A DNA stretch of 64,000 nt, taken from positions 6,240 to 70,239 of the forward strand of contig JAJYJH010000010.1 of NCBI GenBank assembly GCA_021789695.1, in the 5' to 3' direction. The stretch is from a bacterium (GTDB taxonomy: Bacteria > Elusimicrobiota > Elusimicrobia > Elusimicrobiales > UBA9959). Of the stretch, positions 4,615 through 29,457 are shown in pieces. The position numbers and the translations under genes were made by a program. Positions within the stretch are counted from its first letter, which is position 1. Each line of letters begins with the position of its first letter. Below the pieces are notes generated by a model, which saw only the letters and a list, made by a program, of their open reading frames with translations, was not told where the DNA came from and ran no database searches.

Positions 4615-6408
4615 ATGGGCATACTTTTCAGCTGCAGCGAGCTTGCTAAAACCTTCGGATACCGTCCGCTGTTCGAGGGGCTGTCGTTCGGCCTTTTCGA
4701 GGGGGAGCGCACCGGGCTGATAGGCCCTAACGGTACCGGCAAATCCACGCTGCTGCGCATCCTCGCCGGGTTAGAGACTCCGGATTCAGGCGAGCTCGCG
4801 CCGCGGCGCGGCCTGCGGGTAGGCTACCTCTCCCAGCGCGCCCGCGTTGAGGACTTGCCGGCCGGCACCACCGTTAAGGGGTACCTCCTCTCCGCGCTGC
4901 GGGGCCTGGGGCTGCAGGAGTATGAAATGGAGAACCGTGTGGCGGCCGGCCTGGACAGGGCCGGTTTTGCCGAGCCCGATAAAGAGGCCGCGAAGCTCTC
5001 CGGCGGCTGGCGCAAGCGCCTGGCAATCCTGGCCGAGACGCTGCGCGAGCCGGACCTGCTGCTTTTGGACGAACCTACCAACCACCTGGACCTCGAGGGC
5101 GTGCTGTGGCTGGAGAGGTTCCTCGACGGGCTGAAGTTTTCCTTCGTCGTGGTCACGCACGACCGTAGTTTCCTGGAGCGGGTTTGCAACCGCGTCATAG
5201 AGCTGGACCGCCGCTACCCGCAGGGGCACCTGTCGAGCGCCGGAAACTACAGCAGGTTCCTGGAAAATCGCGAGCTCTTCCTGGACGCGCAGGCCTCGCG
5301 CGAGGATTCGCTGCGCAATATAGTGCGCGGCGAGATAGAGTGGCTGCGCAAGGGGCCTAGAGCCCGCACCACCAAGCAGAAGGCCCGCATAGACCGCGCC
5401 GGCCGGCTGATGGATGACCTTTCCGAGCTGGAATACCGCAACGCGCAGGGGCGCGCCGCCGTAATAGACTTCCTTGCCGGGGACAGGCAGGCCAACCGGC
5501 TGGTGGACGCCCGCGCCGTTTCGAAGACCCTTGGCGGCCGCCTGCTCTTCGAGGGGCTGGACCTGGCGCTGCGGCCCGGCGACAAAGTGGGGCTTATCGG
5601 CCCCAACGGCAGCGGCAAGACCACGCTGCTTAAAATTCTGGTCGGCGCCCTGACGCCTGACTCCGGCGAGGTCAAGAGAGCCGAAAGCGTGAGGACCGTC
5701 GTCTTCGACCAGCACCGCGACTCGCTCGATCTGGATATGACCCTCTACCGCGCGCTCTGCCCGGCCGGCGACAAGGTGGCGTATAATGGCGCCTTCGTGC
5801 ACGTCCATAACTGGGCCAGGCGCTTCCTGTTCAGGCCCGAGCAACTGGACTTCCCGCTCTCGAAGCTCTCCGGGGGGGAGCAGTCCCGCGTGCTGATAGC
5901 GGACCTGATGCGCCGCCCGGCGGATCTGCTGCTGCTTGACGAGCCGACTAATGACCTCGACATCCGCTCGCTGGAAGTATTGGAAAACAGCCTGAAGGAG
6001 TTCCCGGGGGCGATCGTGCTTGTGACGCATGACCGCTACCTGATGGGCAGGGTCTGCGGCGCGGTCGTGGGCTTAGACGGCCGGGGCGGCCACGGGTATT
6101 TCGGCGGCCTGGAGCAGTGGGAGGAGTGGCAGGCGGGGCGTGACGCCCTGGCGCAGGCCACGGCCGCCCCGCAAGCGGAACAGAGGCCGGCGCTGGACCG
6201 CCGCGAGGCCGAGGAGTTGCGCAATATGGAGCGCACGATAAAGACCGCCGAGGAGAAAGTCTCCAAAGCCTCCGCCGCCCTGGAGGACCCGGCCATAGCC
6301 GCCGACGCCGAAGAGTTGCACCGCCGTCAGCTTAAACTGGAAGAGGCGCAGGCGAGGGTCGACGCGCTCTTTGCGCGCTGGGAAGCCCTCGAAGCCAAGA
6401 TCCGTTAA
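4615..6408 (+). CDS. ABC-F family ATPase (Uup-like, two ABC domains plus C-terminal coiled coil)
   Basis: Two Walker A motifs (GPNGTGKS, GPNGSGKT), two signature motifs (LSGGWRKR, LSGGEQSR) and no TM segments. Start moved to the internal ATG at 4615 (MGILFSC...), which fits the family N-terminus. Confidence 0.85.
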   Translation: MGILFSCSELAKTFGYRPLFEGLSFGLFEGERTGLIGPNGTGKSTLLRILAGLETPDSGELAPRRGLRVGYLSQRARVEDLPAGTTVKGYLLSALRGLGLQEYEMENRVAAGLDRAGFAEPDKEAAKLSGGWRKRLAILAETLREPDLLLLDEPTNHLDLEGVLWLERFLDGLKFSFVVVTHDRSFLERVCNRVIELDRRYPQGHLSSAGNYSRFLENRELFLDAQASREDSLRNIVRGEIEWLRKGPRARTTKQKARIDRAGRLMDDLSELEYRNAQGRAAVIDFLAGDRQANRLVDARAVSKTLGGRLLFEGLDLALRPGDKVGLIGPNGSGKTTLLKILVGALTPDSGEVKRAESVRTVVFDQHRDSLDLDMTLYRALCPAGDKVAYNGAFVHVHNWARRFLFRPEQLDFPLSKLSGGEQSRVLIADLMRRPADLLLLDEPTNDLDIRSLEVLENSLKEFPGAIVLVTHDRYLMGRVCGAVVGLDGRGGHGYFGGLEQWEEWQAGRDALAQATAAPQAEQRPALDRREAEELRNMERTIKTAEEKVSKASAALEDPAIAADAEELHRRQLKLEEAQARVDALFARWEALEAKIR

Positions 6409-6439
6409 AGTAAAAAAGGGGACGGACTGTTTTTTATAA

Positions 6440-6670
6440 GGAAGCAGCCCGCTGAAGAGGCGGGAGACCTGCGTCTGTGAGCTGCGCGACTTGGTCGGCG
6501 ACAATCTCTCCACGGTCTCCAAGCTCCTTCTGGTGCTCAGGAACGCCGGGTTGGTCGCTTCCCGCAGGGAGGGAAACTGGCTGTGTTGCCGCCTGCCCTT
6601 GCGTGCTGGACTTCACGGCCTGAATGGGCGGGCTTCGCGAAAAGAATGTGTAAACCCGTGCAGCTGCTGA
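6440..6670 (+). pseudogene. ArsR/SmtB-family regulator remnant (5'-truncated, no start codon)
   Basis: Open frame reads ETCVCELRDLVGDNLSTVSKLLLVLRNAGLVASRREGNWLCCRL. That is the CVC metal site plus the wHTH recognition helix, but the N-terminal helices and an initiation codon are missing. Confidence 0.55.
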
Positions 6671-7496
6671 CGGACCGCCTGGTCTATGGCCTTCTGGGGC
6701 TGGGCGGCACGCTCGCTGGTTCGGCTGCGGACTGTTTCATCTTCGAATCCGTGAAGATTTTCGTCCTGCTGGCCATGTAATTTGCTCGGTTTCCGCGCTG
6801 CGCAGGTTCCGGCCGCCTCTGGGCCGCCGGTCTGGGGATAATCACAACTTTCTTTACCTGCAGCGTTATACCGCTGTTCCTGGGCTTCGTGCAGACAGGT
6901 ATACCGCTGGGGATCACGTTCTCGTTCCTCGTGGCGTCGCCGATGATAAACGAGGCGGCCCTGGTGATGCTGCTGGGGATGTTCGGCTTTAAATAGCGCT
7001 GACCTGCGCCGCAAGCGGTTTAACGATAGAGGTGTTCTCCGGGCTCGCCATAGGCCGGCTTAACCTCGAGCACCTGCTGTAGGGCTTAGATCAGAACAAG
7101 CGCATGAAGAACGCCGAGCTTGGCGCCGATATGCCGTGGGCGGAGCGGCGGGCCTACGCGCAGGAGTATCCCCTGGACATCATCGGCAAGATCTGGCGCT
7201 ACGTCCTCGTCGGCATAGGCGCCGGCGCGTGGATAAACGGCTATGTGCCGCAGGGCCTGCTGGCCCGCTGGGCCGGGCCCGGCAAGTGGTACGCCGTGCC
7301 GCTGGCCGCCGCCGGCCTGTCCCTGCCGGAGTTCATGATACTGCGCGGGGCGATGAAGACGCGGCTGCTGCTCATCTTTTTCGGCATAGTCGGCGTTAAT
7401 TTTAACCGGCTTTCCCTTCAACTTGATAATGCGGTAGGAGTGAGCATGGGGAAATACAGGTACTCGGCGGCGGCCTCCCTCCGGGAAGGCGATTGA
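6583..7496 (+). pseudogene. ArsP/DUF318-type permease, decayed (in-frame stops and frameshift)
   Basis: Permease-like segments (FFTCSVIPLFLGFVQTGIPLGITFSFLVASPMINEAALVMLLGMFG; IWRYVLVGIGAGAWINGYVPQ; LSLPEFMILR) are split by TAA 6778-6780, a TAG/frame change at 6994-6996 and TAG 7080-7082. The 3' part looks shortened. Confidence 0.6.
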
Positions 7497-7499
7497 TCC

Positions 7500-7528
7500 T
7501 TGACAAAATGGCGTTTGTCTGGTAGAAT
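7500..7528 (+). promoter_or_regulatory. sigma70-type promoter of the TetR/RND operon
   Basis: TTGACA (7500-7505), 17-nt spacer, TGnTAGAAT extended -10 (TAGAAT 7523-7528). Lies 34 nt upstream of the tetR-family ATG. Confidence 0.6.
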
Positions 7529-7532
7529 GTGA

Positions 7533-7548
7533 GTAAGTGATAACTTAC
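7533..7548. promoter_or_regulatory. candidate TetR operator (perfect 6-4-6 palindrome)
   Basis: GTAAGTgataACTTAC lies between the -10 box and the ribosome-binding site of the TetR gene. Confidence 0.45.
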
Positions 7549-7561
7549 AAAAAGGGGCTTT

Positions 7562-8164
7562 ATGAAATCTCCCGGAAAAAGGCAGACCACCGAGGTTCGA
7601 CGGGAACAGATTAAACGCGCAGTGCTGGACATCATAGCGAAAGAGGGGATGGCGAGGCTTTCCACGCGGCGCCTGGCCGAGCGGGTGGGGATAAGCGAAG
7701 CGGCCATCTTCAGGCATTTCAGGACCAAACAGGATATTATCCTGGGCATAATGCAGGACGTTAAAACGGACATGGTGGGGGGGATGCAGGCCGCGGCCGC
7801 GCAGCAGAAATCCGCTGACAAGCGCCTTTTCGAACTCATGTGCGCGCAGGTGAAATATATAATGAAAAACGAGGGGATAAACATCCTGCTGTTCTCGGAA
7901 GCGGCGCATTATAACGACAGCGTCCTTAAAACGGAGCTGCACGGCATCCTGGCCGCCCAGAAGAAACTGCTGGTCGGGGTGATACGGGACGGCATAAAAG
8001 AGGGGCTCTGGCGCGGCCTGATAAGCGTGGAGGACGCCGCCATGCTGTACATGGGCATCCCCATAAGCCTCAACATCGAGCTGGTGCTCAACCGCAAGAG
8101 CGTCAACACCGAAAGTTTCTGCAAGCGCATGTTCTTTCTGTTTTCCGGCATACTGGCCAGGTAG
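7562..8164 (+). CDS. TetR/AcrR family transcriptional regulator
   Basis: 200 aa. N-terminal HTH (RLSTRRLAERVGISEAAIFRHFRTKQDI). First gene of the efflux operon. Confidence 0.85.
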   Translation: MKSPGKRQTTEVRREQIKRAVLDIIAKEGMARLSTRRLAERVGISEAAIFRHFRTKQDIILGIMQDVKTDMVGGMQAAAAQQKSADKRLFELMCAQVKYIMKNEGINILLFSEAAHYNDSVLKTELHGILAAQKKLLVGVIRDGIKEGLWRGLISVEDAAMLYMGIPISLNIELVLNRKSVNTESFCKRMFFLFSGILAR

Positions 8165-8176
8165 GAGAGCTGTTAT

Positions 8177-9457
8177 ATGAAGGTTAAAACACCGATAGCG
8201 GCCGCCTTGTTGGCCTTAGCCGGCGCCACCGGCGCGCGGGCTTTAACGCTGGACGGCGCCCTGGACGCCGCGCTTAAGAACAGCCCGGCGCTCAACATGG
8301 CGCGCGACGCCGCGGACGCGCAGCGGTACAGAAAATATGGCGCGCGCGTTTCGCGTCTGGGCGAGGTTACCGCCATAGGTAATCTTACACGCTACAATCT
8401 GGACCGCACCCTTACGCCCATGGTGCCGCCCATAAAACCGCCTTTCCCCCTCTCCGACGACACCATTACCAACGTGGGCGGCTCGTACACACTGCCGCTT
8501 TTCACCGGGTTCAAGCTGAGTAAAAATATCTCCATAGCCTCCCTGAGCTATGAAATAGCGAAAGCGCAGAGCTCCCTTACCGAAAAACAGGTGAAGTTCA
8601 ACGTCTATTCTTTATTCCTTAAAGGCCTGGCGCTCAAGGACCAGTTGCAGGCCAAGACGGAGCAGGAAAAGGCCCTGGCCGAGCTGCACAAGAACGTGGA
8701 ACTGGGAGTGAAGATAGGCCGCTATGCCTCCATCGATATTAAAAAGGTGGACTACCAGTACGAAATGGTGAAAGCCCAGCGGCAGGGGCTTGAGAATAAT
8801 ATCGCCTCCCTTAAAGCCGGGCTGGACCAGCTTACGGGGATGGGAACCGACGACTGGGATTTCGAGCCCGCCAAACTGAAAGAAAAAGACTACCCGCCGC
8901 TGGAGGACTTGGTGAAGGCCGCCCTGCTGGACCGCGAGGAAGTGACGGTCAGCATGAAGAAAAAACAGATAGCCGCGGCCAATTATTCCAGATCCAAATA
9001 CGCCTATTTGCCCGAGATCTCCGCCAACTATACCTATTTCAGGAGCATCGGCGGCGGCGGCAGCGTGCCGCTGTGGAACTACGGCGTGGCGGCCCAGTGG
9101 TCCGTGTTCGACTTCGGCAAAAGGGCTTTCGATATGGTAAGCCAGAAGCAGGAGTACAAAAGCGCCAAAGAGGCCGAGACCGCCCAGCAACTGGCCGTGC
9201 GCCGCGAGGTGGTGGACGCTTACGACTCCCTGCGCACGCAGATAGCCCTGCACGAGGCCGCCGTCAAAGCCCTGGCTTACGCCAAGGACGCCAGGAACGT
9301 GGAGAGTGTAAAGTACCAGCAGAACGCCGGCAGCATGTACGACCTGCTCCTTTCGCTGGCGCAGTATTACGACGCCCTTTCGCAGGAGCGGGGCGCGTAC
9401 TACGGAGTGTTTATCTCGGGTAAATACCTGGAACTAAGCGCGGGAGAAAAGATATGA
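8177..9457 (+). CDS. TolC-family outer membrane efflux protein
   Basis: 426 aa with a signal peptide (ALLALAGATGARA). Two-repeat OEP-like sequence. Operon position is ahead of the MFP and RND genes. Confidence 0.85.
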   Translation: MKVKTPIAAALLALAGATGARALTLDGALDAALKNSPALNMARDAADAQRYRKYGARVSRLGEVTAIGNLTRYNLDRTLTPMVPPIKPPFPLSDDTITNVGGSYTLPLFTGFKLSKNISIASLSYEIAKAQSSLTEKQVKFNVYSLFLKGLALKDQLQAKTEQEKALAELHKNVELGVKIGRYASIDIKKVDYQYEMVKAQRQGLENNIASLKAGLDQLTGMGTDDWDFEPAKLKEKDYPPLEDLVKAALLDREEVTVSMKKKQIAAANYSRSKYAYLPEISANYTYFRSIGGGGSVPLWNYGVAAQWSVFDFGKRAFDMVSQKQEYKSAKEAETAQQLAVRREVVDAYDSLRTQIALHEAAVKALAYAKDARNVESVKYQQNAGSMYDLLLSLAQYYDALSQERGAYYGVFISGKYLELSAGEKI

Positions 9458-27651: not shown

Positions 27652-27960
27652 ATGGAGATAAAAGACGCTGCGGTAGAGAAACTCAAGGCGGTGCTCAAGG
27701 AGTCCGGCAAGACCGGCTTCCTGCGCGTATTTGTAACGGAGGGCTGCTGCGGCCCTTCCATAGGCATGGACCTGGTGGAGAAGGCGGAGGCCGGCGACGC
27801 GGAGGTCTCCAACAAGGACTTCAAGCTCTACGTGGCCAAGGACGCCGCCACCCTGGTGGAAAAAGCCGTCCTGGACTGCGACGAGCAGGGCGATATCATC
27901 ATGAAGAACCTGCCCAAACCCGAAGGGAACTGCGGCGACGGCTGCGGCTGCGGCCACTGA
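27652..27960 (+). CDS. HesB/IscA-like protein with vicinal Cys pair and Cys/Gly-rich tail
   Basis: 102 aa. IscA-like fold pattern (FLRVFVTEGCCGPSIGMDLV ... tail NCGDGCGCGH). Located between arsR and arsC. Confidence 0.65.
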   Translation: MEIKDAAVEKLKAVLKESGKTGFLRVFVTEGCCGPSIGMDLVEKAEAGDAEVSNKDFKLYVAKDAATLVEKAVLDCDEQGDIIMKNLPKPEGNCGDGCGCGH

Positions 27961-27970
27961 GCGGGGCCGC

Positions 27971-28402
27971 ATGACGCGGCTACTGTTCCTCTGCACCGGC
28001 AATTCCTGCCGCAGCCAGATGGCCGAGGGCTGGGCCAACGTCCTGCTGGCCGGGAAAGTCAAGGCTTTCTCCGCCGGCACGGCGCCCGGCTCAGAAGTTG
28101 ACAAGCGCGCCATAAAGGTGATGGCCGAAGCCGGCGTGGACATCTCGCGCGGCAGGCCCAAGAGCGTGGACGAGTTCAGGGATAAGGAGTTTGCCCTCGT
28201 GGTCACCGTCTGCGATAACGCCCGCGAGACCTGCCCCGTTTACTGGGGCAAGGGCCGCAAGCTGCACCGCGGTTTCGACGACCCCGGCGCCGTGGTAGGA
28301 AAAGGGAAAACTGACGAGGAGGCGCTGCCGGTGTACCGCCGCGTGCGCGACGAAATAAAGGCGTTCGTGCTGGAACTGCCGGACCTGCAGGCGGGCAACT
28401 GA
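27971..28402 (+). CDS. arsC: arsenate reductase, LMW-PTPase / thioredoxin-coupled type
   Basis: [14 protein letters not shown]-loop plus [12 protein letters not shown] downstream cysteines. Confidence 0.9.
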
Positions 28403-29457
28403 TGGATGGAATGATAAAGAAACTTTCGTTCCTGGACCGTTATCTCACCATGTGGATATTCCTGGCCATGGGCGCGGGCGTGGCCATCGGCTGGCTTTGG
28501 CCGCAAGCCGTGGCTAACTTTAACGCGGCCTCCAGCGTGGGCACTACCTCCATTCCCATAGCCGTCGGCCTGATCCTGATGATGTACCCGCCGCTGGCCA
28601 GGGTAAAATACGAGGAGATGCACAGGGCCTTCGCGGATAAGAGGGTGCTGGCGCTCTCGCTGGCGCAGAACTGGCTGGCAGGCCCGGCGCTGATGACCGC
28701 GCTGGCCATTCTCTTCCTGCGCGACAAGCCGGAGTACATGGTGGGGCTTATCCTCATCGGTCTCGCCCGCTGCATAGCCATGGTGATAGTCTGGAACGAC
28801 CTGGCCGGCGGCGATACTGAATATTGCGCGGGGCTGGTGGCTTTTAATTCCCTGTTCCAGGTGCTGTTCTTTCCGGTTTACGCTTATTTCTTCGTCACGC
28901 TGGTGCCGCGCTGGCTTGGACTTGAGGGCGCGGTGGTGAATATCACCATGGCCGAAATAGCTGAAAGCGTGTTCATTTATCTTGGTATTCCGTTCATCGC
29001 GGGGATAGTCACGCGCTTTGCGCTTCTGGCCGCCAAGGGGAAAGAATGGTATTCAAAATTCACCCGCGTATTAAGCCCGCTCACGCTTATAGCCCTGCTG
29101 TTCACTATCGTAGTGATGTTCTCTATAAAGGGCGCGAACATAGTGCAGGTGCCGCTGGACGTGGCGCGCATAGCCGTCCCGCTGCTGTTTTACTTCGCGG
29201 TTATGTTCTTCGCCTCGTTCTGGATGAGCAAAAAAGCTGGCGCCAGCTATCCGCAATCCGCCACGCTGTCTTTTACCGCCGCTTCCAATAACTTCGAGCT
29301 GGCCATAGCCGTGGCGGTGGCCACGTTCGGCATCGGCAGCGGAGAGGCTTTCGCCGCGGTCATAGGCCCGCTGGTGGAGGTGCCTGTGCTCATCGGCCTG
29401 GTGAACGTCTCGCTTTGGATAGGCAGACGCTGGTACGGCGCCCCGGCGGCGCAATAG
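28402..29457 (+). CDS. acr3: arsenite efflux transporter, ACR3 family
   Basis: 351 aa with about 10 [20 protein letters not shown] and [19 protein letters not shown] motifs. TGATG overlap with arsC. Confidence 0.9.

Follow-up and report, generated by a model that had tools for sequence, protein, structure and literature searches.

A HesB/IscA-fold gene with a vicinal cysteine pair in an Elusimicrobia arsenic operon and its ars-linked relatives in other phyla

Introduction

Few resistance systems have been studied as thoroughly as the arsenic resistance (ars) operons, in which every newly described accessory gene (among them arsD, arsH, arsI, arsJ, arsP and arsN) has revealed new arsenic chemistry. 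The ArsD protein, for example, binds As(III) through its vicinal Cys12-Cys13 pair together with Cys18, and the ArsD of R773 carries C-terminal CC pairs as well. Here we describe a gene for a 102-residue, cysteine-rich protein of the HesB/IscA fold that lies inside an ars operon, at 27652..27960 (+) of a 64,000-nucleotide (nt) stretch from an Elusimicrobiales bacterium (contig JAJYJH010000010.1, positions 6,240 to 70,239; the whole stretch is called the window below). The gene is a member of a recognisable, unnamed and functionally uncharacterised ars-linked subfamily, whose other members we refer to, like the window gene itself, as HesB-like genes.

The closest described genes come from Bacillus and Exiguobacterium. 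In the ars1 cluster of Bacillus sp. CDB3 (arsRYCDAT-orf7-orf8), orf7 was noted to be HesB-like (PMC4562236, PMC5481582), and the eight-gene operon including orf7 forms one ArsR-controlled transcript (PMC4562236). In Exiguobacterium ars operons, hesB rises together with arsR, arsD and arsA (PMC8779447). The window gene shares with both the setting of a small HesB-family gene in an ars operon, where the described genes are co-transcribed or co-induced with their neighbours. Homologues on Bacillales plasmids carry the same GCCGP dyad (as GCCGPQ) with a single terminal Cys and lie downstream of arsD-arsA-(trxB), whereas the window version is distinguished by a CGDGCGCGH tail, by following arsR and preceding arsC, and by the lack of ArsD and ArsA; the equivalence of CDB3 orf7 with the subfamily is drawn from operon layout rather than from sequence. 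We found no functional study of an ars-linked HesB-like gene in the literature, a statement that does not extend to Zheng et al. 2013 (on the function of arsA-arsT-orf7-orf8), and three overviews of ars genes, reviews or surveys (PMC6205960, PMC2963123, PMC12607644), mention no HesB or Fe-S (iron-sulfur) protein in ars operons. The initial annotation of the window had known of no characterised ars component of this type; such genes are indeed uncharacterised, but a HesB-like one had already been noted in both Bacillus CDB3 and Exiguobacterium.

Two further groups of proteins are relevant. HesB-like selenoproteins are a known orphan family of unknown function (PMC1794560; PMC13188914, with the motif UxGP), and neither paper mentions an association with ars genes. 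These proteins (TIGR01911 HesB_rel_seleno, UxGP; NF038090 IscA_HesB_Se) resemble the present subfamily in their HesB fold and in a selenocysteine (Sec) or Cys on the first-ligand loop followed by G-P, but the window protein and typical ars-linked members score under both model cutoffs, with a single Desulfobacteria member (L028) above that of NF038090. The C-terminal CC pairs of MerA and HgcB are soft-metal hand-off arms, in which a flexible Cys pair takes up the metal and hands it on to a site further inside. The ...SSCCG tail common in our subfamily resembles the ...SSCC end of HgcB, although the motif is short and of low complexity, the proteins and metals differ, and the subfamily has no genomic tie to Hg.

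Identity and fold of the HesB-like gene

The product, MEIKDAAVEKLKAVLKESGKTGFLRVFVTEGCCGPSIGMDLVEKAEAGDAEVSNKDFKLYVAKDAATLVEKAVLDCDEQGDIIMKNLPKPEGNCGDGCGCGH, begins at an ATG with a Shine-Dalgarno-like AAGGGA 6 nt 5′ of it, includes TEGCCGPSIGMDL and ends in NCGDGCGCGH. A 39-nt gap separates the gene from the end of arsR at 27612 and a 10-nt gap from the start of arsC at 27971; the gaps and motifs given by the initial annotation all proved correct. A chance open reading frame (ORF) or a mis-called gene is ruled out by the ratio of nonsynonymous to synonymous substitution rates (dN/dS), which at 0.14-0.28 against six orthologues indicates purifying selection, by 39 homologues at ≥51% identity, by a Pfam match, and by independent gene callers that predict the identical 102-residue protein on three public contigs (Elusimicrobia-type metagenome-assembled genome).

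The Pfam match is to PF01521 (40.4 bits; gathering score, 26.3) and places the protein in the HesB/IscA fold. An AlphaFold2 model with a predicted local distance difference test (pLDDT) score of 77.6 has the same fold, and the best Foldseek matches were E. coli IscA 1s98, the [2Fe-2S] IscA 1x0g and SufA 2d2a, at template modelling (TM) scores of 0.62-0.73 (for 1s98, E = 1.2e-6 and TM 0.69-0.72). The last ~10 residues are of low confidence or disordered in the model, with pLDDT <50 for residues 95-99. The ArsD family model PF06953 gave no match to the protein at E ≤ 1, and the fold search returned HesB-fold proteins only. Like ArsD, this is a small ars protein, presumably cytosolic, with a vicinal Cys pair (ArsD has a third Cys nearby, and some ArsDs also have C-terminal CC pairs); together with the cysteines of its tail, the pair may supply the thiols of an ArsD-type As(III) site. 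Unlike ArsD, it has the HesB and not the thioredoxin-like fold, and the two share no sequence similarity.

Within the fold, the protein falls short of every curated carrier model (TIGR00049, 46.4 against a cutoff of 58.8; SufA, 37.1 against 136.2; ErpA, 29.5 against 117; IscA, 24.2 against 150.6) and of both selenoprotein HesB models (TIGR01911, 18.8 against 66.35; NF038090, 36.0 against 85). Membership of a named NCBIfam family could likewise be rejected for typical SSCCG members, Bacillales members and Sec variants, none of which reached a cutoff; the Desulfobacteria member L028 (110 bits against the NF038090 cutoff of 85; motif GCCGPS) is the only one inside NF038090, and it adjoins arsR and an ArsM-like methyltransferase gene. 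Profile alignment to solved carriers sets C32 on IscA Cys35, C33 on the Ser of GCSG and C98-G-C100 on the canonical C-G-C. The window protein is thus like IscA, SufA and ErpA in fold, length and the Cys at three ligand positions. It differs from them in having GCCGP where carriers have GC[SA]G[FM]xY, in a short Cys tail that replaces their NPNA...CGCGxSF block, in its Sec-bearing relatives and in belonging to ars operons rather than isc, suf or nif clusters. The tail had been described beforehand as departing from the usual CGCG-type ending. This holds for its extra CGDG unit, its lost x-S-F and its terminal His, but the canonical C-G-C(-G) of A-type carriers is itself kept, as C98-G-C100-G-H.

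The HesB/IscA fold, the Pfam membership and the retained equivalents of Cys35 and the C-G-C pair bring up the alternative of an arsenic-dedicated Fe-S carrier, that is, an A-type carrier that would rebuild or protect As(III)-damaged clusters and be co-induced with detoxification, like SufA in oxidative stress. Arsenicals do hit Fe-S biogenesis. Canonical hesB and suf genes are also induced by dimethylarsenate in Pelagibacter (PMC6426599). We nevertheless regard such a carrier as unlikely, given scores below all curated carrier cutoffs and several features of the cysteines: the invariant second Cys is not explained by ligation, exposed vicinal thiols would be prime As(III) targets, and the pattern is inconstant in the subfamily, with a single terminal Cys in Bacillales members and one Sec in place of the dyad in Sec variants. 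We know of no precedent for a Sec ligand in an Fe-S carrier.

Linkage to ars operons across phyla

Relatives were sought with a HMMER scan of 1.84 billion representative proteins (534 matches), in 72,556 plasmids, and with a metagenome scan seeded on CGPSLAM (clade-level alignment A4), which returned CC/Sec-type genes along with ordinary HesB-family genes and so supplied its own control set. Pooling and de-duplication of the CC/Sec loci left 54, of which 43 were well flanked (≥2.5 kilobases (kb) on each side), and ars genes were sought within 6 kb. An ars structural gene lay within this distance in 53 of the 54 loci and in all 43 well-flanked ones, whereas other HesB-family genes from the same scan, lacking the CC/Sec site, were ars-linked in one case out of 47 (0/13 with flanks). 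All four plasmid matches were in ars operons. The missing linkage of canonical single-Cys HesB genes, and the fact that no isc, suf or nif gene was found among the annotated neighbours of the 54 loci, both argue against an Fe-S carrier. A family annotated "iron-sulfur cluster biosynthesis family protein" therefore ranks among the most consistently ars-linked genes across many phyla. This context, together with the sub-cutoff family scores, bears out the initial suspicion that this is something other than an ordinary factor of Fe-S assembly; the subfamily probably has an uncharacterised part in arsenic handling rather than a housekeeping role in Fe-S supply.

Operon layouts vary widely (X denotes the HesB-like gene). 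Within Elusimicrobia we collected 23 related loci from one-genome-per-species contigs, 24 with the window, and in 23/23 arsC lies directly 3′ of X, followed nearly always by acr3. Fifteen have the window type of layout, with hgcB-hgcA diverging from arsR-X-arsC-acr3, and the other eight read arsR-arsP-Trx3-x-DsbD-arsM-X-arsC-acr3, with no hgcAB. The order arsD-X-arsA is found in Nitrospirae, Nitrospinae and Deltaproteobacteria, and arsD-(104-residue ORF)-arsA-X-arsC...acr3 on Bacteroidia-type, Anaerolineae and Ignavibacteria-labelled contigs. Hyphomicrobiales have arsR-acr3-...-X, and Bacillales plasmids of three genera have arsR-arsB-(arsC)-arsD-arsA-(trxB-DSP)-X. Such recurrence refutes the idea that the linkage is a one-off. 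As to which neighbour the gene follows, a survey of the 43 well-flanked loci found a part of As(III) export (Acr3, ArsB or ArsA) in 41, ArsC in 33, ArsD in 16 and HgcA, with hgcAB, in 15.

These counts also settle whether the protein stands in for ArsD. The initial annotation had noted that arsD and arsA are missing locally, and tblastn of the whole 64 kb window indeed found no arsD, arsA or arsM. As a general rule, though, substitution is ruled out, since arsD and/or arsA directly adjoin the HesB-like gene in most lineages outside Elusimicrobia; X is often the immediate neighbour of arsD and next to arsA, and with ArsD in 16/43 loci the two are not mutually replacing. The arsA neighbour in those lineages hints at As(III) transfer to ArsA.

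The position of the HesB-like gene directly 5′ of arsC in 24/24 Elusimicrobia loci, and the one to three arsC genes that follow it in Bacteroidia-type and Anaerolineae clusters, suggest a different alternative, namely a thiol/selenol redox relay. Here the CC/Sec dyad and a C-terminal CC would cycle between dithiol and disulfide, and the protein would act as an operon-encoded thioredoxin substitute that recycles ArsC (or ArsM). The GCUG/SCCS arm of large thioredoxin reductases is a model for electron transfer of this kind, and the G-C-C-G and G-U-G motifs presumably resemble the C-terminal redox motif of those enzymes. In Bacillales the gene comes after trxB (arsT), beside genes for flavin adenine dinucleotide (FAD)-dependent oxidoreductases, in operons with no thioredoxin gene (PMC8779447). 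The distribution of partners nonetheless makes the relay improbable in our judgement. At least eight cluster types carry the HesB-like gene with arsD/arsA/acr3 or arsB and no arsC in view (L024, L030, L034, L041, L045, L046, L053, L054), and ArsC (33/43) is a less constant companion than the efflux parts (41/43). It is difficult to see why an ArsC reductant should so often be encoded in the arsD-arsA interval, and the window ArsC has a full Cys triad, of the kind normally served by ordinary thioredoxin.

Cysteine dyad, C-terminal tail and selenocysteine variants

The subfamily signature is the vicinal Cys dyad in G31-C32-C33-G34-P35, encoded at 27742..27756 (+). Alignment A1 shows no departure from GCCGP, and alignments A2 and A3 show none or almost none. 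A vicinal CC occupies the first site in at least 81 of the best 150 matches of the HMMER scan, and some others have near variants such as GCCSP and GGCCP. Diverse members agree fully or almost fully at G31, C32, C33, G34, P35, D75, G86 and one tail Cys. The Cys-Cys/Sec signature is diagnostic; at the second dyad position the subfamily has an invariant Cys, versus Ser, Ala or Gly in canonical carriers. The window gene has all the traits of the ars-linked CC/Sec subfamily, namely GCCGP, a short Cys tail without NPNA...SF, and an ars cluster around it.

The C-terminal Cys/Gly tail, N93-C-G-D-G-C-G-C-G-H102, is encoded at 27928..27957 (+) and lies in the disordered part of the model. All 24 Elusimicrobia proteins end in C(G)C(G)H after zero to four CGD(G/S) units, so the NCGDGCGCGH of the window is one step in a repeat-length series. 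Tails in most phyla read ...SSCCG, some read ...CCH, and Bacillales members end in a single C (...NC), which with the CC dyad gives them exactly three thiols. One 120-residue protein (P0062) begins with an ArsD metalloid-binding N-terminus (MKVEIYDPPMCCSSGICGP..., with an MCCSSGICGP site) and runs on into a HesB domain of the CC type whose last residues are SSSCCG. Seen only once, it may represent a true gene fusion, or else an artefact in which a deletion or the assembly joined adjacent arsD and hesB-like genes.

In Nitrospirae-type clusters, paralogues occur with an in-frame TGA exactly at the dyad, flanked on either side by an unbroken, conserved reading frame. They read GG-TGA-GPSLAMD, GG-TGA-RPSLAMG or GG-TGA-SPSLTMD; at least seven distinct TGA sequences were found, and the same one recurs on three independent contigs. 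These genes (L024 6027-6300; L046-L052; L055-L057) are flanked by arsD and arsA or by arsM and arsC, and in L046-48 a putative Sec copy and a CC copy share one cluster, arsD-X(Sec)-arsD-X(CC)-arsA. A hairpin, GGCUAU-GGAC-AUAGCC, begins 14 nt 3′ of the UGA, and one sequence carries the compensatory GACUAU/AUAGUC (G-C to A-U), a change that also alters two amino acids. With seven sequences, two covarying pairs and z = -1.6 for a single sequence, the hairpin is a candidate selenocysteine insertion sequence (SECIS), an assignment we hold with moderate confidence. On this sequence evidence the ars-linked TGA genes are probably selenoproteins, although they score under the TIGR01911 and NF038090 cutoffs. 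If real, Sec at the dyad would mean that a reactive nucleophile occupies that position, contrary to expectation for an Fe-S ligand. Redox-active Cys is the usual evolutionary source of Sec (PMC1794560), and the existence of such variants is accordingly a point in favour of the redox relay too.

A possible role in arsenite handling

The reading we prefer is that the HesB-like protein serves as a thiolate buffer or hand-off protein for As(III), to which we give a probability of about 0.5. Thiolates of the dyad and of the tail arm would bind As(III) in a trigonal three-sulfur (S3) site. In this way the protein would capture arsenite that ArsC has made or that has come in from outside, shielding other thiol and Fe-S proteins from it, and the bound arsenite would be passed by ligand exchange to the exporter, which would be Acr3 here and the ArsD/ArsA/ArsB system elsewhere.

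Several lines of evidence point in this direction. The ars context is specific to genes with the CC/Sec site (53/54 versus 1/47 for other HesB genes), it recurs in unrelated operon layouts and phyla, and its common denominator is As(III) export (41/43), with weaker association for ArsC and hgcAB. An invariant vicinal Cys pair and a Cys tail would fit soft-metalloid binding, and the extra Cys is kept even in the minimal, three-thiol forms of Bacillales. The putative Sec forms would suit a reactive nucleophile, and the predicted disorder of the tail is what would be expected of a swinging arm, analogous to the Cys arms of ArsD, MerA and HgcB. The single apparent ArsD N-terminus::HesB fusion, P0062, is a further point. 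The co-transcription or co-induction of hesB with ars genes in Bacillus CDB3 and Exiguobacterium, like the tight or overlapping junctions and lack of predicted terminators in the window operon, would tie expression of the gene to arsenic. We conclude that this is probably a distinct HesB/IscA-fold subfamily recruited to arsenic detoxification, with a dyad or Sec on the first-ligand loop and a flexible Cys arm.

Other observations weigh against an As(III) buffer. All three Fe-S ligand positions of A-type carriers persist in the window protein (C32, C98-G-C100), which may therefore bind Fe or an Fe-S cluster, and ArsD co-occurs frequently, which raises the question of why two chaperones should be kept. 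The Bacillales gene adjoins trxB and FAD-dependent oxidoreductase genes, a context that a redox relay fits at least equally well, and Sec/Cys interchange is a classic mark of redox-active Cys (PMC1794560). Nor did we find binding or genetic data in the literature for any member of the subfamily.

If As(III) is bound or relayed as proposed, models of arsenite trafficking would need a second type of chaperone, especially in Acr3-only anaerobes like these Elusimicrobia. A widespread mis-annotation would also be corrected, and a selenoprotein family left an orphan since 2004-2006 would gain a concrete functional hypothesis. More tentatively still, CC/Sec HesB-fold proteins may form an unrecognised, phylum-spanning class of As(III) thiolate/selenolate hand-off proteins, unrelated in structure to ArsD and working with Acr3 or with ArsD/ArsA-ArsB, in which the TGA forms would be the first selenoprotein metalloid chaperones. 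Were this so, the long-orphan 'HesB-like selenoprotein' type would acquire a functional context.

Operon organisation and control region

The operon opens with arsR (27226..27612, +), which encodes 128 residues (NF033788, 65.3 bits against a cutoff of 55) and is given as the same 128-residue ArsR in public annotations. Its helix 3 contains the Cys pair ELCVCE, which we take to be the classic As(III)-sensing pair. Downstream of the HesB-like gene, arsC (27971..28402, +) encodes a reductase of the low-molecular-weight protein tyrosine phosphatase, thioredoxin-coupled type (PF01451, 69.7 bits; the best NCBIfam model, TIGR02691, at 115.5 bits is under its cutoff of 174.3), and its Cys8, Cys81 and Cys88 occupy the positions of the pI258 catalytic triad. 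The arsenite efflux permease gene acr3 (28402..29457, +; TIGR00832, 438 bits against a cutoff of 282.8) starts within the stop of arsC (TGATG). No terminator is predicted anywhere within arsR-HesB-like gene-arsC-acr3, and the junctions are tight or overlapping.

The putative promoter/operator of arsR, at 27190..27227 (+), consists of a -35 TTGTGT, a 17-nt spacer and a perfect -10 TATAAT at 27213-27218. The -10 is enclosed by the palindrome ATATATGC-N8-GCATATAT at 27204-27227, an inverted repeat with 8/8 complementary positions that would serve as the operator. As the arsR ATG falls within the right arm of the palindrome, the arsR transcript is probably leaderless. A sigma-70 scan of the window did not flag this promoter because its -35 is weak; it was found by repeat search and by comparison with relatives, where the same palindrome and -10 recur in 17/17 arsR-bearing Elusimicrobia loci and the -35 is TTGACA in many. 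Given the ELCVCE pair of ArsR, the conserved promoter element and the lack of an internal terminator, As(III)-inducible co-transcription of the four genes is likely, and the HesB-like gene is likely a genuine member of this ArsR-controlled operon.

The palindrome lies 49 nt from the start of the divergent hgcA, and the same ArsR operator may also gate hgcAB.

Relation to hgcAB

On the other side of the control region lie hgcA (26160..27155, -; NF040863, 417.6 bits against a cutoff of 275) and the ferredoxin gene hgcB (25870..26163, -; NF040864, 122.6 bits against 99), whose product has the C-terminus PDCGCGDGSSCC. Co-localisation of hgcAB with arsR and other ars genes has been published (PMC7438021; bioRxiv 10.1101/2022.10.17.512643), the HesB-like gene being mentioned in neither study, and the window is another example of hgcAB with an ArsR-type control region.

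The initial annotation linked the protein to Hg(II) and its tail to that of HgcB. As an accessory of HgcAB, the protein would supply the methylation pair with Hg(II), or with Fe-S clusters destined for the ferredoxin HgcB. It does adjoin hgcAB in the window and 15 related loci, with a divergent control region common to both, HgcB and the HesB-like protein both have Cys/Gly-rich tails, and at one locus (L043) a single ars operon contains both hgcAB and the HesB-like gene. The neighbourhood data largely refute this role, which we consider very improbable. The HesB-like gene belongs to the ars transcription unit, and it occurs without hgcAB in eight Elusimicrobia loci, where it keeps arsC-acr3, and in ~28 loci of other phyla. 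Among the 72,556 plasmids none of the matches had a mer or hgc context, and no HesB-like relative was found in a mer operon. Elaboration of the tail is alike with and without hgcAB in Elusimicrobia, so that tail type is uncorrelated with the pair. We find, then, no evidence for a link to Hg.

Homology or gene conversion between the two tails was rejected as well. The shared TGCGGC(GAC)GGC strings are what any C-G-D peptide would give under local codon usage, the order of units is permuted, and the number of CGD repeats varies independently of hgcAB; the CGCG/CGDG likeness is attributable to low complexity and codon bias.

The L043 cluster (5345-8610) reads arsD-x104-arsA-X-arsC-arsC-hgcA-hgcB-acr3-...-methyltransferase, with an HgcA of 341 residues (CdhD domain) and an HgcB of 97 residues (ferredoxin); its HesB-like protein is labelled Peptostreptococcaceae by NCBI. 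Across L001-L023, the corrinoid methyltransferase pair (hgcAB) and the S-adenosylmethionine-dependent ArsM hold alternative positions beside the X-arsC-acr3 module.

Other observations

In Bacteroidia-type clusters, a conserved 104-residue ORF with no Pfam match is always found between arsD and arsA (L036 2858-3172; L038, L040, L042, L043, L045). With one Cys and hydrophobic strands patterned like those of ArsD, its product may be a diverged paralogue of that protein. In three phyla, ars clusters with the HesB-like gene contain or adjoin a gene for a CMAS-type (cyclopropane-fatty-acid-synthase-like, PF02353) methyltransferase (L024 6422-7432, L028 3287-4648, L032 7526-8647).

The window holds a second, degraded-looking arsR-arsP unit at 6446-7496, ~20 kb upstream. 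Its ArsR-like match falls outside ORFs of ≥70 residues and its ArsP similarity is divided between two frames, the only intact part being a 130-residue C-terminal ORF at 7104-7496. Next to hgcB is a P-type ATPase gene (23327-25744, -) that is 96% identical to its counterpart in L016 (3639-6053), versus 75% for HgcA, 72% for ArsR, 61% for the HesB-like protein, 73% for ArsC and 35% for Acr3 between the same two loci, a contrast that suggests a mosaic hgc/ars cassette, or one that related genomes have exchanged.

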